From the NCBI GenBank assembly GCA_963706595.1, contig OY970166.1, positions 4,992,001 through 5,056,000 on the forward strand: a stretch of 64,000 nt of DNA. The letters run 5' to 3'. Positions 2,197 through 53,390 of this stretch are shown here, in pieces. This DNA comes from an uncultured cyanobacterium. Lineage in GTDB: Bacteria > Cyanobacteriota > Cyanobacteriia > Cyanobacteriales > Nostocaceae. Each line of letters opens with the position of its first letter. Position 1 is the first letter of the stretch. Both the position numbers and the translations under genes were made by a program. The notes beneath the pieces are model-generated. The model did not search any database. It was not told where the DNA came from and saw only the letters and a list, made by a program, of their open reading frames with translations.

Positions 2197-2754
2197 TTAT
2201 TGAACCTTACATAAAACTTGTCGCATTTTACGCATATTTGCAGGCAATTCAAAATGCATGGCTTGTTGAATCACAATTGAAGGGATAGGGATATTAGGCG
2301 TAGCTTGGACTTGATATGCCAACAATGTGCCATCGCCAAAATCTTTGAGGTCTAAAATGGCTGTAAAGTCGAGAAAAGTCCCTTTTTGCATCCGGAATTG
2401 AATTTGTTGCCCTAGCAATTCTACGACATCAAGATAAATCTCTACTTGAGCCGTAAAAAACAAAAAACTTTTTTGTGCGACTTGATACACTCGCTTGACT
2501 TCACCCTTGGACAAAACTTCGCTTTTGGTAAGATCAGGAAAATATTGTACCCAACGAGGATAATCAGTTAATTGCTGCCATGCCTGCGATCGCAATAACG
2601 GTAAATACATACAGGCGGTAACAGATCCACCGCAGGCTGTGTGCGATCGCGTTTGCAACAAAATTTCACCTTGCATCAGCGACGATTGCTTTTCCTGACT
2701 CCAAGGCATATTCAAACCTCTAATAATCGAGTCTGAGATATGAGATGCAGACAT
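2197..2754 (-). CDS. SRPBCC / polyketide cyclase-dehydrase family protein
   Basis: WQQLTDYPRWVQYFP motif and START-fold size; GAGGAG RBS-like site upstream. Confidence 0.8.
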   Translation of the reverse strand: MSASHISDSIIRGLNMPWSQEKQSSLMQGEILLQTRSHTACGGSVTACMYLPLLRSQAWQQLTDYPRWVQYFPDLTKSEVLSKGEVKRVYQVAQKSFLFFTAQVEIYLDVVELLGQQIQFRMQKGTFLDFTAILDLKDFGDGTLLAYQVQATPNIPIPSIVIQQAMHFELPANMRKMRQVLCKVQ

Positions 2755-3009
2755 ATTAATTTCAGTTACTCCTCAACTTCTCCACCTGTCAGCACTGAAA
2801 CGGCAAACCATTCAATAGGATTTGATCCCAGCAAACAAATTCTCGTTTCAGTGCTATGCTGCCCAAACTAATCATTTTTAAGAAATTATTCCGGAATTAT
2901 ACTGTAAAAACTGTATTTCTTATCACTCTTTATGAAAACCATAAGTTAGTGACTTATAAAATAGAATATCAACAAAGCAGTTTTAATCTTGATTTGAGAG
3001 GCTAATTAA

Positions 3010-3204
3010 GTGAATCAATCTTCATTAAATCGGACATTAACCCAAATTTTTGGGATTCTGCTCGGTATTGGACTAGCCGTATGGGTATTGAGAGGTTTTG
3101 GGATTTTGACGTTTATTCCAGGTGGAGTTATTGGGCTATTATTACTAGGCGCGATCGCTGTCGGGATTATTAGCTATGTCCAGAGAACTTGGTGGCGCTT
3201 ATAG
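3010..3204 (+). CDS. Small two-TM membrane protein, function unknown
   Basis: GTG start after GAGG RBS; two hydrophobic helices. Confidence 0.75.
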   Translation: MNQSSLNRTLTQIFGILLGIGLAVWVLRGFGILTFIPGGVIGLLLLGAIAVGIISYVQRTWWRL

Positions 3205-3236
3205 TCTCAATATACTTCTAAAACAGGTAAAAAACT

Positions 3237-3401
3237 ATGGAAAAGTATGTATGTACTGTTTGCGGTTATGAATATGACCCTGAAATTGGTGATCCTGATA
3301 GTGGGATAGCCCCAGGAACACCCTTTGAAGATATCCCAGAGGATTGGGTCTGTCCAGTTTGCGGCGCGACAAAAGATTTATTTGAACCGCTAGAACCGTA
3401 A
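3237..3401 (+). CDS. Rubredoxin (54 aa; absent from the ORF track)
   Basis: Hand translation [54 protein letters not shown]; two CxxCG motifs. Confidence 0.97.
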
Positions 3402-3529
3402 GGCGGAAGTTAAAAGTTTACCCTGAGCGAAGTCGAAGGGTCAAAAGTCAAACAGCTGATGGAGTCCCTATTTATGCTTTGCTGTACTAGCCTAGAATTA
3501 GATGCCATATCATAGAGACATTTTTTAAA

Positions 3530-47470: not shown

Positions 47471-50110
47471 TTAATCCATATTTTGCAACCCCATCGCAAT
47501 CTTACTGTGTTTTTCAATCTGCCCCATGACTTGTTTTGCGCGTTGAATTACCACATCTGGTAAACCCGCCAAACGTCCCGCTTCAATACCATAGGATTTA
47601 TCCGCACCACCCGGTTGAACTTGGTGTAGAAAAATAATTCTGTCGGGTAATTCCTTCACAGTCACCTGATAATTAGCTACATTCGGGAGAATACTAGCCA
47701 ACTCATTTAACTCATGATAGTGAGTCGCAAAAATTGTCCGCGCCCGAATATCCACAGCTATATATTCTGCAACCGCCCAAGCAATAGAAAGACCATCAAA
47801 AGTTGCTGTCCCACGGCCAATTTCATCTAACAATACTAAAGATTTGGCAGTAGCATGATTGAGTATATTTGCTGTTTCATTCATCTCCACCATAAAGGTA
47901 GATTGACCCGTAGCTAAATCATCCACAGCACCTACACGAGTAAAAATGCGATCGCACACACCCAACCTCGCCAACCGCGCCGGCACAAAACTACCAATTT
48001 GCGCCATCAACTGAATCAACCCCACCTGACGCAAATAACAACTCTTACCACTCGCATTTGGCCCAGTCAGAATTACTAAATCGGGGAGTGGGGAGTGGGG
48101 AGTGGGGAGTGGGGTATTTTCTGCTTCAGGGAGTGGGGAGTGGGGAGTGGGGAGTGGGGTATTTTCTGCTTCACTACTCCCTAATTGCGTGGAATTCGGC
48201 ACAAAAAAGCCCGCAGGTAAAGACTGTTCCACCACCGGATGACGACCATCCACAATCATAATTTCTCGTCCCTCAACCATTTCAGGACGACAATAGCCTT
48301 GCTGTACAGCCAATTCAGCCAAACCACACAACACATCAGCCGCAGCTACAGCACGAGAAATATTGCGAATAATTTCCGCCTGTTCTCCGACCTCTTCCCG
48401 TAACTCCACAAAAATCTCATATTCCAACTGATTTAAATCATCCCGCGCTGTGAGAATCCGTGCTTCCCGTTCTTTCAACTCTGGGGTGATGTAACGTTCT
48501 TCATTAGTTAAAGTTTGCTTACGGATGTAATTCTCAGGTACTTGGTCAGATTTAGAACGAGAAATACTAATATAGTAACCAAAGGTTTTATTAAATCCTA
48601 CCTTTAAGTTGGGGATACCAGTTTTTGCCCGTTCATCAACTTCTAAATTAGCAATCCATTGTTGGTCTGATTCTACAGTGGCTTTTCGCTCATCCAACAT
48701 GGGATTCATCCCTGCACGAATTAAACCACCTTCTTTAATGTGTATGGGTGGTGATTCTACCAAATGGGCGTGTAACTTTTGTGCCAGTTCTGATAGTTCT
48801 ACCGGGACTCTCTGCAAAGCTTTCAGGAAAGGCGATCGCGCATTGATCACCAAGTGGGATAATTGCGGTAAGCGTGACAGCGAATCAGCCAAAGCGACTA
48901 AATCTTTAGCGTTAGCAGTTCCAGAACCAGCCCTTCCCGTCAGCCGTTCTAAATCGTAAATTTGCCGTAATAACTGCCGCAAATCTTGACGCAGAGGTGT
49001 ATTTTCCATCAACTCTTGGATGGTATTTTGACGCGCCCCAATGCCTTTAGTATCAATTAGCGGTTGTAATAACCAGCGCCGCAACGCCCGCCCACCCATC
49101 GCTGTGCTACTTCTATCTAATGCCCACAGCAGGGAACCGTGAAATGTGCCATCCCGGACTGTTTGCGTAATTTCCAAGTTACGGCGAGTTTGATTATCAA
49201 CAATTAAATAATCAGTAATTGTATATGTGCGTAACCTTTGCAGGAAAACGGGGTTGACTCTTTGCATATCTTCCACATATTCCAGCAGACCACCAGCCGC
49301 CCGCACAGCTAAGGGAAGATGATCACAACCGAGTCCTTCAAGCGATCGCACTTTGAATTTTTCTAATAATTTCGGTCTTGCTTCACCTTGGGAAAAAGGA
49401 AGTTGCGATCGCAAGCTATAACAAAATGATGGTGGTAGACATTGGGGAAGATGGGGCGAAGTTTCTCCTGGACGCAACAAGCTACCCAAATCAGGGGCGT
49501 TTGTGGGAACTACCACCTCGGAAGGTTGCAACCGCATTAACTCCTGAGTCAGGTGTTCTAAATCACTACCTTGAGTTGTGAGAAATTCCCCTGTAGAGAT
49601 ATCTGCATAAGCCAAGCCCCAATGATTCACCGCAATTACCACAGCCGCAAGGTAATTATTACGACTGGATTTTAACATTCCCTCTTCTAGCAAAGTCCCT
49701 GGTGTGAGGATGCGGGTAACTTCGCGCTTAACTAAACCGACTGCTTCCGATGCGTCTTCTACTTGGTCGCATATTACCACCGCATAGCCTTTTTCCACCA
49801 ATTGGGTTGTGTAGCGTTCCCAAGCGTGATGGGGTACACCAGTCATGGCTACGCGACCAACTTCGCCACCGTGTTTACTGGTGAGAACAAGTTCCAATTC
49901 TCTGGAGACAGTCACAGCGTCTTGGAAAAAAGTTTCAAAAAAATCTCCTACCCGATATAGCAGCAAAGCGTGAGGATGTTTATCCTTAACTTCCACATAA
50001 TGCTGGTACATCTTACTCAGCTTGCTGCGGTCTACCAATTGAGTATCCACATGAGGCGCAGCAGGGATGTTGGGTTCCGTTGGTTGAGTTTCAGATTGAG
50101 AAGCAGTCAT
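47471..50110 (-). CDS. mutS: DNA mismatch repair protein MutS (with in-frame repeat insert)
   Basis: [45 protein letters not shown]. Confidence 0.98.
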
Positions 50111-50210
50111 AATGCTAGGGGTGATGCACGGAGATTCCACAATACCTGATGATAGCGTGATGTGGGGGTGAGTAGGCGATCGCTCAAACTTTTGTCATGG
50201 TTTCTGTTAA

Positions 50211-50397
50211 GAGGTTGTTTGAAAAGTCTAATTTATGACTAACTTGGCGACTAGAAGTCGCGGCTACACGGACGAAACCCGCCTGCGCGGGTTAATTTTT
50301 CATCAGTCCACGCAGGTGGACGTTGCTTGTGTAGTAGCGTATCGCTAACGCGAAGCGTAGCCATATTATATTCGCCCAAAACTTCTCAAACATCCTC
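50211..50397. mobile_element. MITE with 17-bp TIRs and TAA target-site duplication (IS5/PIF-like ends)
   Basis: TAA|GAGGTTGTTTGAAAAGT...ACTTCTCAAACATCCTC|TAA; internal hairpins. Confidence 0.8.
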
Positions 50398-50970
50398 TAA
50401 AGTCGTGAACAGGCGATCGCAGTATGGCGAAGCTTTGCGAATTATAGCCACATCTAGCAATTCCAAAAGCTTAGAGGCGTGTTTAATTTTGTGATACTCA
50501 GCCTTGCTAGTTTTACGCGTAGCAGCTTTGAGAATGCGTTCTAGATTTTGTTTATCAATTGTCTCCACATTTAAAGTTTTAGGAATGGCATTTTCTAGAA
50601 AATCCTTACCGTAAAATGTCTTTAGAGTTTCAATATCAGCAATAAACCAAGCCTCCATTGTTTGAACCATCAAATGACAGTGACTATCGTCAACTTCTGA
50701 AGGTTTATCCCAGTTATCCCTAAACTTCAAATGTCCCCAAGGAGAATTTATGGTTACAGGTGCTTCTGCGTCTACCAGCAAAATATTAAAAGCATTTGGA
50801 TAAGATTTTAAAGCATTTCTAAAATCACGAAAAGCATTATTACGAGAACCACAAATAGTAATATTCAATTTAAATTGTTTGAGAAATTGACTAAATCCTT
50901 TCCTAATCAAAGCTTTCGTATTTTTACCATCACCACCACCCTCTATATAAATCCGAATTTCTTTTACCAT
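50386..50970 (-). CDS. DUF4276 family protein (TOPRIM-like)
   Basis: IYIEGGG, LLVDAE, MVQTMEAWFIAD, YHKIKH; start overlaps the ATPase stop. Confidence 0.82.
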   Translation of the reverse strand: MVKEIRIYIEGGGDGKNTKALIRKGFSQFLKQFKLNITICGSRNNAFRDFRNALKSYPNAFNILLVDAEAPVTINSPWGHLKFRDNWDKPSEVDDSHCHLMVQTMEAWFIADIETLKTFYGKDFLENAIPKTLNVETIDKQNLERILKAATRKTSKAEYHKIKHASKLLELLDVAIIRKASPYCDRLFTTLEDV

Positions 50971-52169
50971 CGATTCCCCCCAATTTCACCCATCCGCCAA
51001 AGGTCGCCGAGAGTATAATTTTCTAGCCAATCTTTCAGTTTATCAGGTTCCAGGCGGCGGAGGTGAGACCCTTTTTCATCTCGTTCACAAACTATTACTG
51101 ATTCGGGATATTCACTCAAAGCAGAAACTAAAGCATCAGAATGAGTTGTCACTATTAATTGTGTTCTCTGCGATGCTTCAATTAGCATTTCTGCAATAGT
51201 TGGTAAAATATCTGGATGTAAACCAATTTCTGGTTCTTCAAGACAAATAAGTGATGGTGGAGTGGGGTCAAGTAATAAAGCCATTAAAAATAAATAACGG
51301 AGTGTACCATCAGATAGCCGATTTGCAGGAATTGGTTGAATAAAACCCTCTTCACGAATAAATATCTGTACTGTACCGCCATATACTCTTACATTCAGTT
51401 CTTCTGCATTTGTATAAAACTTTTGAAGCTGTTCAGTAATTTTTCTACTACCTATTTGATGTTGTAAGTTATTTAAGACTAACCCAATATTACTTCCATC
51501 TTCCAAGAGGGGATATACAGGAAGGTCAGCTTGTTGAGGTCTACGGGGTTGGCAATTACGACCTATTGGTAAGTCTCTATACATAAGTATCCAGAGTAAT
51601 TTATGACGAAGGGATGTTATCTCTGGATATTTACGCACATCTTGCAATTGTGACAAAATTGACTGATTTGCTTGAAGCATTCCAGAATCCCAGACTTCTT
51701 CATGAATTGTTTCTATCCCTGAATCATTTCTTTCTCTAATTGTAGAAACTATTTTGCCCTTATTATTAAAGCGATAGAAGAAAAATACATCACTCTCATC
51801 TGAAGAGGGTTTTTCATTTTCTATAGATTCATCCACTAGAGAAAAATTTTGATAAAGTTCACCAAACTTCAATTTATAACGTATATTTTGTGAACTTTCT
51901 AAAGTTAATACAACCTCAATTTCTGCTTCAGAAGTATTCTTTTCACCTTTCCAGAGATAATCAAAAATACCCCCACCGTAACGTATAGCAGCTTGTAAAT
52001 CTCCTGGCGCTGCGCGTAAAATTCCAATTGCCTCTATTAAATTTGATTTACCAGAAGTGTTAGCGCCAATTAAAACATTTAGCGGTTCTAGTTCAATTTC
52101 TTCACCTTCATTACCATAGGAAAGGAAATTTTTTAACCTAATGTTATGAATGAATCTTTTGCCTTCCAC
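50964..52169 (-). CDS. AAA_21/AAA_15 ABC-type ATPase
   Basis: LKNFLSY, GANTSGKS, LSDGT signature, LEEPEIGLHP, TTHS; AT-rich. Confidence 0.92.
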   Translation of the reverse strand: MEGKRFIHNIRLKNFLSYGNEGEEIELEPLNVLIGANTSGKSNLIEAIGILRAAPGDLQAAIRYGGGIFDYLWKGEKNTSEAEIEVVLTLESSQNIRYKLKFGELYQNFSLVDESIENEKPSSDESDVFFFYRFNNKGKIVSTIRERNDSGIETIHEEVWDSGMLQANQSILSQLQDVRKYPEITSLRHKLLWILMYRDLPIGRNCQPRRPQQADLPVYPLLEDGSNIGLVLNNLQHQIGSRKITEQLQKFYTNAEELNVRVYGGTVQIFIREEGFIQPIPANRLSDGTLRYLFLMALLLDPTPPSLICLEEPEIGLHPDILPTIAEMLIEASQRTQLIVTTHSDALVSALSEYPESVIVCERDEKGSHLRRLEPDKLKDWLENYTLGDLWRMGEIGGNRW

Positions 52170-52251
52170 TTGATTCTCCTAGTTGCTTAATTATCTAAAT
52201 TTTATGAGTTTTATTTGCTTTTACTCTCAGTTACCCAATAGAATTTGATCG

Positions 52252-52365
52252 GAGTTTCAGAGTGAGAATCAGTCACATCCTCTCAGATTGATACATAAAA
52301 AGCCACAATATCTCATGATAGCGTGATGTGGAGATTTAAGAGGCGATCGCTCAAACTTTTGTCAT
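52252..52365 (-). repeat. Diverged direct-repeat copy of the mutS upstream region and first 8 codons (partner at 50086-50198)
   Basis: Collinear blocks GAGTTTCAGA.TGAGAA.CAGTCA, CCACAATA.CT.ATGATAGCGTGATGTGG and AGGCGATCGCTCAAACTTTTGTCAT at matching spacing. Confidence 0.88.
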
Positions 52366-53390
52366 CATAAAAATTGGAAAAAATTTATAGTAGGTAGAGG
52401 TAACTGGCGCAGGTAATGATTAATTTCCATCGATGCACTGAGTCCAGAAATCATTGCGTCTTCGGCGAGATAGCCACCACACCAATCACCACAACATACT
52501 AAAGGAGGGGAAGTTTTGGCAGATAATACAGGATGTAACCACGGACGACTAGGAAAAGCGTAACGCCAGCGATGTACTTGCATCCACTCTGGTTTTTCCA
52601 GCCAGGGAAGCGCTAACCTCTGGGCTGCTTGTTCCAACATCTCTTTCCCTACTGGTTGTAAATCTGGGGTTTCTAAATGCAGTTCGGCAAATTTAGCGCT
52701 ACTTTGCAATACAAATACAGGTTGCTGAGGGTGGGGACGTTTGCTACTATCTAAACCAATCCATCCCAGAACAGCGTCATCTGTAAATTTTCGCTCGTTC
52801 CAATGTGGTAGTGCTGTGGATGTGGCAGGATATCCCGCGATCGCACTCACAGAAGGGTAAAATTCTACAGAACTCAAATTGTCGATAAATTCTTTACCTA
52901 ATACAGGTTCCCCCAATGGTGCTAACAGTGTCAACGCTTGGGGGGCGGGAATGGCTAAAACTAAGGCTTTCGCTGTTAATTGTTCGTTACTTTCCAGAGT
53001 CAGACACCAACTATTTTCCTCTGTGGGGTGAATAGCTGTGACACGTTGATTGAGTTGGATTTGTAAACCTTGGGCGAGAAACTTGGCGATCGCACTCATT
53101 CCCGCAGGTACGATGTAACGGGGTGCAGAATCGGGTTGAGTCGCATCTGCCCACACTTCTACGATATGGCGATCGCGTAACAATTGCACAAAATTATCGA
53201 ATAATTCACCTTTAGGCTTTAAATAACACGCCCCATGATCTGCCCAAGTTCCATATAATCGGCGTGTAGCTAGTCGTCCCCCCAAACCACGGGACTTTTC
53301 CAGCACCAACACTGAATATCCCGCTTGAGTTAACCTTTGGGCGCAGACTAAACCCGCCATTCCGGCTCCAATTATTGCAATATCAGTCAT
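52365..53390 (-). CDS. Renalase-like NAD/FAD-dependent oxidoreductase
   Basis: GAGMAG, EKSRGLGGRLATRR, DHGA, HRWRYA, CGDW. Confidence 0.9.
   Translation of the reverse strand: MTDIAIIGAGMAGLVCAQRLTQAGYSVLVLEKSRGLGGRLATRRLYGTWADHGACYLKPKGELFDNFVQLLRDRHIVEVWADATQPDSAPRYIVPAGMSAIAKFLAQGLQIQLNQRVTAIHPTEENSWCLTLESNEQLTAKALVLAIPAPQALTLLAPLGEPVLGKEFIDNLSSVEFYPSVSAIAGYPATSTALPHWNERKFTDDAVLGWIGLDSSKRPHPQQPVFVLQSSAKFAELHLETPDLQPVGKEMLEQAAQRLALPWLEKPEWMQVHRWRYAFPSRPWLHPVLSAKTSPPLVCCGDWCGGYLAEDAMISGLSASMEINHYLRQLPLPTINFFQFL

Follow-up and report, generated by a model that had tools for sequence, protein, structure and literature searches.

How did a two-gene cassette come to lie directly upstream of mutS in an uncultured member of the Nostocaceae, bracketed by two copies of the mutS upstream region? 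The locus lies in a window of 64,000 nucleotides, the whole stretch of DNA analysed, whose numbering is used throughout. The reading favored here, to which we assign a probability of roughly 0.65, is that the distal repeat is a fossil of the mutS promoter and first eight codons, left behind by a one-sided recombination that would have brought in an ATPase–DUF4276 gene pair.

An earlier note on this DNA described direct repeats around the cassette that share a HIP1-containing 25-mer, and alignment of the two copies bears this out. The segments 50086..50198 and 52252..52365, both on the minus strand, are identical in 89 of 115 alignment columns (77.4%; BLAST E 3.8e-16). The repeat is present in two copies in the 5.57-Mb genome, and the 25-mer, identical between them, and the 17-nt ATGATAGCGTGATGTGG block each occur there exactly twice. 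The remaining BLAST matches are short, centered on HIP1, and score at most 36 bits. A dispersed high-copy element is thus ruled out as the identity of a repeat with only two genomic copies. The mutS-like starts are present as earlier described, with ATG at 50110 and, in frame on the same minus strand, GTG at 52276. The proximal copy, which carries the upstream region and first eight codons of the working gene and is conserved across the family, would be derived from the donor; the distal copy, taken for a fossil on the basis of repeat alignment, junction comparison, tree and conservation, would be derived from the recipient. Its GTG opens a stub reading frame (52211..52276, minus strand) of eight mutS-like codons, 13 unrelated codons and TAA, that is, 21 codons and a stop (52276-52211) rather than the approximately 26 first reported. 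The illegitimate junction falls within this stub at about 52252, near +25 of the resident mutS. Each copy contains one HIP1 octamer (50176..50183 and 52343..52350, no strand assigned), a motif found at 0.78 per kb in the genome.

The bracketed insert of about 2.1 kb comprises two genes and a MITE, with no mobility gene. On the left, mutS is intact (47471..50110, minus strand; 879 aa from the ATG at 50110; Pfam MutS_I-V all over cut-off) and serves as the conserved anchor gene; it retains its own upstream copy, confirming that the cassette has left it unharmed. The DUF4276 protein (50386..50970, minus strand; 194 aa; Pfam PF14103, E 4e-30) matches the TOPRIM-like HEC-01B of PADLOC with E 6e-85 and displays what we take to be acidic motifs, IEGGG at residue 9 and LVDAE at residue 65. 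The corresponding reading frame of relatives terminates within the proximal repeat; here a MITE of 187 bp (50211..50397, no strand assigned), whose 17-bp terminal inverted repeats agree at 15/17 positions and which is flanked by a duplicated TAA target, has inserted near the 3′ end and clipped the C-terminus. The MITE, which has 154 BLAST matches in the genome, is unrelated to the bracket. The second gene encodes an ABC-type ATPase (50964..52169, minus strand; 401 aa; Pfam AAA_21; PADLOC HEC-01A, E 3e-174), in which motifs that we presume to be Walker A, signature-like, Walker B and H-loop could be located. Its central part has diverged from that of its congeners and forms a long branch in the tree. 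Beyond the distal copy lies a renalase-like FAD oxidoreductase gene (52365..53390, minus strand; Pfam), whose 3′ end is clipped by about two codons at the join. Comparison with relatives indicates that this gene is outside the cassette and is not the original neighbor of the distal copy, beside which it was placed by a later, lineage-specific rearrangement.

The adjacent ABC ATPase and TOPRIM-like gene correspond to the gene content of HEC-01, and the best PADLOC matches, to HEC-01A and HEC-01B, make the pair a candidate anti-phage system of that type, as judged from sequence. Judged by its family, the cargo is most likely an ATPase-controlled nuclease that serves in defense against phages or plasmids. 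According to the available part of the report, HEC-01 gave no phage defense in a published E. coli assay (bioRxiv 10.1101/2024.01.29.577857).

The locus is not peculiar to this genome. With one genome sampled per species, 73 of 122 loci carry HEC-01 genes, PDC-M07 genes (a second ATPase/PIN pair) or both upstream of mutS, so that the region is a family-wide cargo hotspot. The flanks are conserved, with mutS on one side and an AI-2E transporter or DUF1517 gene on the other; the cargo measures 1–6 kb, and the two ATPase pairs predominate. Some relatives have a single pair, of either kind, immediately ahead of mutS; others have both pairs, separated by a mutS-upstream copy. At L033, which lacks the HEC-01 pair, the PIN gene ends within a single mutS upstream copy, whereas the filled locus L002 reads PIN, fossil, ATPase, DUF4276, second copy, mutS; a one-copy site of this kind looks the same whether it is a pre-insertion state or the product of pop-out. 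At the loci where HEC-01 comes first and PDC-M07 second (L015, L016 and L120), no fossil lies between the pairs. No integrase or recombinase is found within the cassette, and Pfam searches at E 1e-9 returned no integrase, resolvase or DDE transposase in 150 of 165 neighboring families, the scan passing over 15 large or plainly housekeeping proteins chosen by eye, ORFs of less than 130 aa and the conserved anchor clusters; proteins with no Pfam match at this level stay unassigned. The earlier remark that no integrase is encoded nearby thus holds over this range. Empty alleles and alternative cargo between the same flanks both exist in relatives (L033 and the PDC-M07 loci), and these, with a duplicated start and a repeat that is not dispersed, agree with the earlier note on the points most able to tell against it.

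Stray mutS-upstream copies also turn up repeatedly in other genera, in most cases immediately ahead of the HEC-01 ATPase. Many of them are bordered on the left by the 3′ end of the PIN gene, which thus marks the old cargo–promoter junction. The right-hand junction, at +25 in this genome, is variable: it lies at +5 in eight loci, at +9 in L079 (131/137 identical) and L071, at +75 in L078 (161/169 identical, with other cargo) and at +95 in L048, and within about 10 bp of HIP1 in L003, L010/L035, L041, L046, L142, L146, L147 and L148. At L032 a piece of the flanking core gene DUF1517 comes after the fossil, which is what a dragged-in donor flank would produce; for the 45 bp past the junction in this genome, inspection by eye found no donor flank among the AI-2E C-termini listed. 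The 5′ end of mutS is mosaic, and one homologous anchor is accompanied by one non-homologous junction of variable position. In G008, G010 and G003, identity is 99% over 95 bp upstream vs 94–95% in the body of mutS. The DUF4276 of L004 groups with other genera (support 100), and its ATPase and mutS do not. One nhmmer match, at L075, was not counted as a fossil, because it looks like the real promoter displaced by an RRXRR gene.

Phylogenetic analysis speaks for repeated events. Seven changes on the tree are needed for the thirteen long fossils, and a single origin of all fossils as one clade is rejected with p-AU 1e-69 in a test that left aside 30 long-branch or distant proximal rows. In trees built on 123 columns, for which the bootstrap had not settled, the fossil of this genome pairs with that of L002 (100/99), the single copy of L033 joins these two (97/81), and the proximal copy of this genome falls elsewhere; a tree uniting the two copies of this genome is not rejected (p-AU 0.09).

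The proposed mechanism is read from these end products. The incoming DNA, acquired by transformation or supplied by a sister chromosome copy, would have carried the ATPase–DUF4276 pair together with its own mutS promoter and mutS. It probably recombined homologously inside mutS, while its other end underwent an illegitimate join near +25 of the resident gene, so that the resident's old promoter and first eight codons would stay behind as the distal copy. Such a route would amount to one-sided, homology-facilitated illegitimate recombination, in which the new pair is added at the mutS-proximal end, resident cargo is pushed upstream and mutS is kept intact. In this genome, on this reading, the older PDC-M07 pair was lost in a later rearrangement, which also brought the renalase-like gene next to the fossil. 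Genes for ComEC and DprA are present, as they commonly are (10/14 and 11/14 control genomes, respectively). The earlier proposal that the cassette entered the 5′ end of mutS by recombination with a related copy gains support from the empty and filled alleles and from the comparison of fossil copies, and appears probable.

The bracket could also have arisen by another route. A circle bearing the pair, the mutS promoter and a 5′ piece of the gene might have integrated at its homologous target by a Campbell-type single crossover, or the locus might have been duplicated in tandem and then trimmed by deletions, with the same long target duplication as end product. Either course would yield the same bracket with variable lengths, and would accommodate the identical 25-mer, the clade of this genome's two copies that the AU test allows, and the exchange between copies seen at L041 and L002, where PIN ends are fused to DUF4276-type promoter sequence. 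However, a separate illegitimate circularization, or two additional precise deletions, would be called for in each of at least four lineages, and the fossil of this genome is nearer to the single copy of another species than to its own proximal copy. We regard this origin as unlikely, though the most serious competitor of the one-sided capture. The shared 25-mer and the p-AU of 0.09 are also what an intragenomic duplication, or later gene conversion between the copies of this genome, may have left.

Alternatively, HIP1 in the region upstream of mutS might be the specific crossover point that captures cargo, the longer fossils being by-products. Published work connects HIP1 with site-specific and illegitimate recombination (PMC4390886) and with transformation (PMC13756078), as far as the accessible parts of these sources go, and the fossils that end beside it in several relatives would fit the role of driver that the earlier note considered for it. 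The suggestion is thus supported in part; against it, the junction of this genome is at +25 and four other classes lie between +5 and +95. Moreover, small repeats inserted into HIP1 at L085 and L144 can mimic fossil ends there, the count of HIP1-near ends is biased because copies shorter than HIP1 are undetectable, and a motif of this density serves as microhomology anyway. A directing role for HIP1 is accordingly improbable.

Least probable is an excisable site-specific element, mobilized by a recombinase in trans and switching mutS expression. Heterocyst excision elements recombine site-specifically at a fixed site, interrupt a gene and excise on cue. The in-register direct repeats and in-frame distal GTG would permit pop-out to one working start, and alleles without the pair exist. 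Yet neither the cassette nor the neighboring families scanned, in this genome and its relatives, include a recombinase; the repeats are 77% identical with variable junctions; a filled allele leaves mutS with a promoter and start of its own; and the pair stays in place where the fossil has been lost (G009 and G010) or half deleted (G003). No sequencing run contained this strain or as much as half of the stretch (best share 0.17), and the runs therefore carry no evidence on excision. SpyCI of streptococcal mutL, in the published account as far as it is available, is likewise foreign DNA, bounded by direct repeats, in the 5′ part of a gene for mismatch repair, but it is placed there by site-specific recombination at a fixed site, with gene interruption and cued excision, none of which is shown at mutS. 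Unlike SpyCI and integrase islands, the mutS cassette encodes no recombinase and has no fixed, near-identical attachment core. The bracket is very probably no excision element of the SpyCI or heterocyst type, and the earlier analogy to these, with mutS uninterrupted, finds no support.

To return to the one-sided capture, the old promoter would have been kept because the new pair is now transcribed from it. A −10-like hexamer of the presumed mutS promoter, TATCAT (50149..50154, minus strand), was read by eye and is kept in the profile consensus, and it is retained in the distal copy (52315..52320, minus strand). A sigma-70 scan returned seven sites vs 7.1 expected, none on the minus strand and neither TATCAT among them. 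Across six loci the promoter half is equally conserved in fossils (87/80%) and working copies (86/80%), whereas the untranslated leader is 76% conserved in fossils vs 91% in working copies; the pair of fossils from this genome and L002 shows the same trend, and in the two-locus set g76 one fossil is without the upstream part. Conservation of the promoter half while the leader decays suggests that the distal copy probably drives the ATPase–DUF4276 cassette. The earlier idea of cargo under a mutS-type promoter fits this selective conservation, which gene conversion between the copies could also explain. Three supplementary files of PMC3610870 contain no 'mutS' or 'mismatch repair' entry from which a transcription start could be taken; its other supplements may hold start-site tables.

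The mutS locus is a hotspot of a known insertion kind, the long target duplication. In the available text of PMC2853133 this comprises defense-type genes spanning less than 20 kb, with no mobility gene, between direct repeats that are unique, variable in length and longer than 30 bp; the repeat spans the translation start, leaving the target intact, and a Microcystis case is listed. The repeat of 113–114 bp in two copies, the insert size, the lack of a mobility gene and the empty relative correspond, but the cargo is ABC-ATPase/TOPRIM rather than restriction-modification, a criterion of that survey, which limits the match to the mode of insertion. The mutS repeats are also old, at 77% identity, and the event recurs at one orthologous locus family-wide. 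The sequential displacement arrays of Vibrio T6SS effector-immunity clusters, attributed in the accessible part of PMC5361080 to homology-facilitated illegitimate recombination, share the one-sided anchor, the new module beside it, the displaced older modules with relics and the lack of an integrase; at mutS, in contrast, the anchor is a core repair gene and the relic a promoter and start rather than orphan immunity genes. As partially available accounts describe them, MGE-free hotspots between recombining core genes (PMC5635113) and core defense hotspots (PMC10250203) similarly combine conserved flanks with variable, partly defense-type cargo, whereas the mutS hotspot is small, dominated by two ATPase pairs and traced at the level of a family rather than a species. 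Like HEC-01 in PADLOC and in the portion of bioRxiv 10.1101/2024.01.29.577857 at hand, the mutS pair consists of two genes, but it lies outside any Hma system and its clade is tied to mutS. The open-access literature yielded no description of a mutS hotspot, or of DUF4276 at mutS, in cyanobacteria, and the hotspot is apparently undescribed so far.

The scar type itself is ordinary, being already in print and having about 16 look-alikes elsewhere in this genome. What is now defined is a small gene-exchange hotspot at mutS that spans a cyanobacterial family, with several independent, datable junctions that make an integrase-free capture route testable. It ties an entire clade of HEC-01, an unvalidated defense candidate, to a single locus and probably a single promoter, together with a second candidate, PDC-M07, and provides a native host and expression context in which both can be tested. 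A far more speculative thought, and a doubtful one, is that mutS in heterocystous cyanobacteria is home to a dedicated stack of cassettes, free of integrases, and that selection has repeatedly favored ABC-ATPase/nuclease pairs lying under the mutS promoter. If so, the cargo would be co-regulated with mismatch repair, its target would perhaps be incoming DNA or DNA undergoing recombination instead of phage, and MutS, by blocking recombination between brackets of 77% identity, would gate the loss of the cassettes that stand before its own gene.

The genes at this locus all lie on the minus strand, in the order renalase-like gene (53390-52365), ATPase gene (52169-50964), DUF4276 gene (50970-50386) and mutS (ATG at 50110). 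The proximal copy of the repeat (50198-50086) holds the upstream region and first codons of working mutS; the distal copy (52365-52252) is a fossil duplicate upstream of the ATPase. The earlier note had described these as diverged direct repeats, and the alignment bears this out, with 89 of 115 columns matching (E 3.8e-16). Nor is the repeat a dispersed element, as no third copy occurs in the 5.57-Mb genome. The distal stub extends for 21 codons and is MutS-like in 8 of them. The bracketed DNA has a GC content of 35.5% versus 46% in both neighbours, and the nearest named records are from Nodularia or its near kin. A MITE (50211-50397) flanked by a 3-bp TAA target duplication lies between the DUF4276 gene and the proximal copy; it has 154 BLAST matches in the genome and is plentiful in congeners. 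Within mutS, an in-frame insert (48078-48170) made of a pair of 45-bp units, which carry repeats of the heptamer GTGGGGA, encodes PTPHSPL repeats; this is the part of the gene varying most among congeners. The next gene 3' of mutS (47428-45977) varies too, an NADH-dehydrogenase-like gene occupying this position in just 4 of 11 cases.

The bracket recurs in relatives. A profile of the mutS region from -112 to +120, searched against the upstream DNA of 120 loci, gave 30 matches in 28 loci, 29 of them in the same orientation; the reversed control gave none. Seventeen matches have E < 1e-3, and when that of locus L075 is left out, 14 of 16 directly precede the HEC-01 ATPase. Among 30 loci selected by DUF4276 alone, a copy stands before the ATPase in 20, the window included (E 0.1), and three carry two stacked copies.

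Comparison of 122 distinct mutS-upstream regions (141 retrieved, 19 duplicates) reveals a conserved frame that ends in an AI-2E transporter gene, or in DUF1517 in this genus (labels read from the sequences by eye), with variable cargo between that gene and mutS. The sample is non-random: it favours close relatives and includes one 20-region batch of which 13 were picked for showing two matches. Within it, 39 loci hold HEC-01 genes and 48 a second ATPase/PIN-like pair, named PDC-M07 by PADLOC; 14 hold both and 73 at least one of the two. Both orders of the two pairs are seen, and PhoD, kinases and Uma2 are among the further cargo. Relatives also supply the empty allele that had been sought: in L033 a PIN gene ends inside the sole mutS upstream copy, and the filled allele L002 reads PIN, fossil, HEC-01, second copy, mutS. 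In genomes G001, G007 and G021, a short remnant of the DUF4276 end retained before mutS shows that the pair was lost secondarily. A 22-bp deletion upstream of mutS, shared by L032, L033 and L040, takes out the spacer preceding the TATCAT hexamer together with half of HIP1; L032 nevertheless has a mutS like that of the other clade, and thus a mosaic promoter.

The cargo ATPase is an AAA_21 protein and its partner a DUF4276 protein; PADLOC matches the first best to HEC-01A (E 3e-174) and the second to HEC-01B (E 6e-85). The preprint that introduces HEC-01 presents it as an ABC ATPase paired with a TOPRIM-like protein, for which phage defence was not found in E. coli (10.1101/2024.01.29.577857); it is therefore by family membership that the pair may be assigned to defence here. 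The DUF4276 clade of the cassette occurs in 80 of 389 family genomes, one copy each (E 1e-40), and in 5 of 10 other genomes of the genus. Of the 39 genomes with both positions listed, 37 have this gene no more than 6 kb from mutS, and mutS is within 1.5 kb in 23 of the best 30 DUF4276 loci. The ATPase protein sits on a long branch. Its middle (about 51540-51770) does not align to congeners' copies, though both ends do, and is likely a swapped insert domain.

How the cassette arrived is suggested by its junctions. The fossil ends at base +25 of resident mutS in the window, at +5 in eight loci, at +9 in L079 and L071, at +95 in L048 and, with other cargo, at +75 in L078. Fossils elsewhere are flanked by an old PIN end, and L032 carries a dragged-in DUF1517 fragment. 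Together, these features fit one-step additive capture. Donor DNA comprising cargo, promoter and mutS would recombine with the resident inside mutS. Its other end would join the resident promoter or gene illegitimately, at a point in the first 100 bases or so, and the new cargo would come to lie downstream of the old promoter and stub. Capture by exchange is further indicated by three genomes with 99% identity upstream of mutS versus 94-95% in its body, and by one congener whose DUF4276 is of another genus's type. Integration of a circle, or duplication followed by deletion, would give an identical end product. Pfam searches, which covered 150 of the 165 families in the neighbourhood, turned up a single RRXRR gene and no integrase, resolvase or DDE transposase. 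An RRXRR (IscB-like) gene lies in L075 (about 2199-3470), between the mutS upstream region and start codon.

HIP1-driven capture, as the earlier note proposed, is partly sustained: the octamer may act as microhomology (PMC4390886; PMC13756078), and the junction is near HIP1 in about eight loci, but that of the window is not at HIP1. The 13 long fossils, which branch among working copies from the lineages that carry them, require 7 changes on the tree; a single clade of all 13 is rejected (p-AU 1e-69). The window fossil groups first with the L002 fossil and then with the L033 single copy; a tree that unites the two copies in the window survives the test (p 0.09).

In six loci, fossils and working copies compare at 87/80% vs 86/80% over the promoter half and at 76% vs 91% over the leader. 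Retention of the promoter half beside a decayed leader suggests that the fossil promoter drives the cargo; gene conversion could also have conserved that half. Passive pop-out between the two copies would regain the working mutS start. MutS suppresses recombination between such diverged copies. Its effect on diverged recombination is also treated in PMC6382021.

The window's locus has also been rearranged. Its original left neighbour, DUF1517 together with a PDC-M07 ATPase remnant of about 20 codons, is now 74 kb off (genome position about 5118250-5119430), and in relatives the renalase-like gene lies at another location and is about 2 codons longer; the left border of the bracket here is therefore a later rearrangement breakpoint. 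The intervening 74-kb block (contig position about 5044369-5118231, from window 52369) has a peptidase/dnaK-like pair at one end and the renalase-like gene at the other. Its ends adjoin elsewhere in relatives (renalase, variable genes, then peptidase), so that its order looks circularly permuted. About 60 kb from mutS is a prophage- or island-like gene run (about 5085890-5105092), whose last ORF (5104016-5105092) is integrase-looking by eye. The region 3' of renalase is another variable spot: in L027 (genome G008) two copies of the renalase 3' end flank an insert of about 1.1 kb, which by eye resembles a HicAB-type pair, and G009 has a similar insert.

Self-comparison of the genome yielded 541 local direct repeats, 41 of them low-copy and bracketing a gene. 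In 17 of these 41 rows (16 loci by hand count) one copy falls within a gene while its partner lies beyond it. These look-alikes, recognised by repeat layout, show that mutS is not unique in bearing scars of this type. The mutS-like layout, a 5'-end or promoter duplication around cargo, is seen at contig positions 780050-783065, 1565797-1568497, 1696001-1701560 and 2311129-2315999.

The bracket is thus real, explained and of an already-known kind. Insertions with long target duplication (PMC2853133) correspond to it in all but cargo type, the proposed displacement arrays of the Vibrio T6SS (PMC5361080) work like the mutS stack, and hotspots free of mobile elements (PMC5635113; PMC10250203) are the setting that the mutS locus represents. 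The analogy with SpyCI elements is not supported, since no recombinase was found in the cassette or the neighbouring families searched, and a fixed site and gene interruption are missing from the mutS bracket; nor is the analogy with heterocyst excision elements. Our search of the open-access literature found no paper on the mutS-upstream locus. What is new is the repeated capture at mutS across the family, together with the linkage of two unvalidated defence pairs to the mutS promoter.
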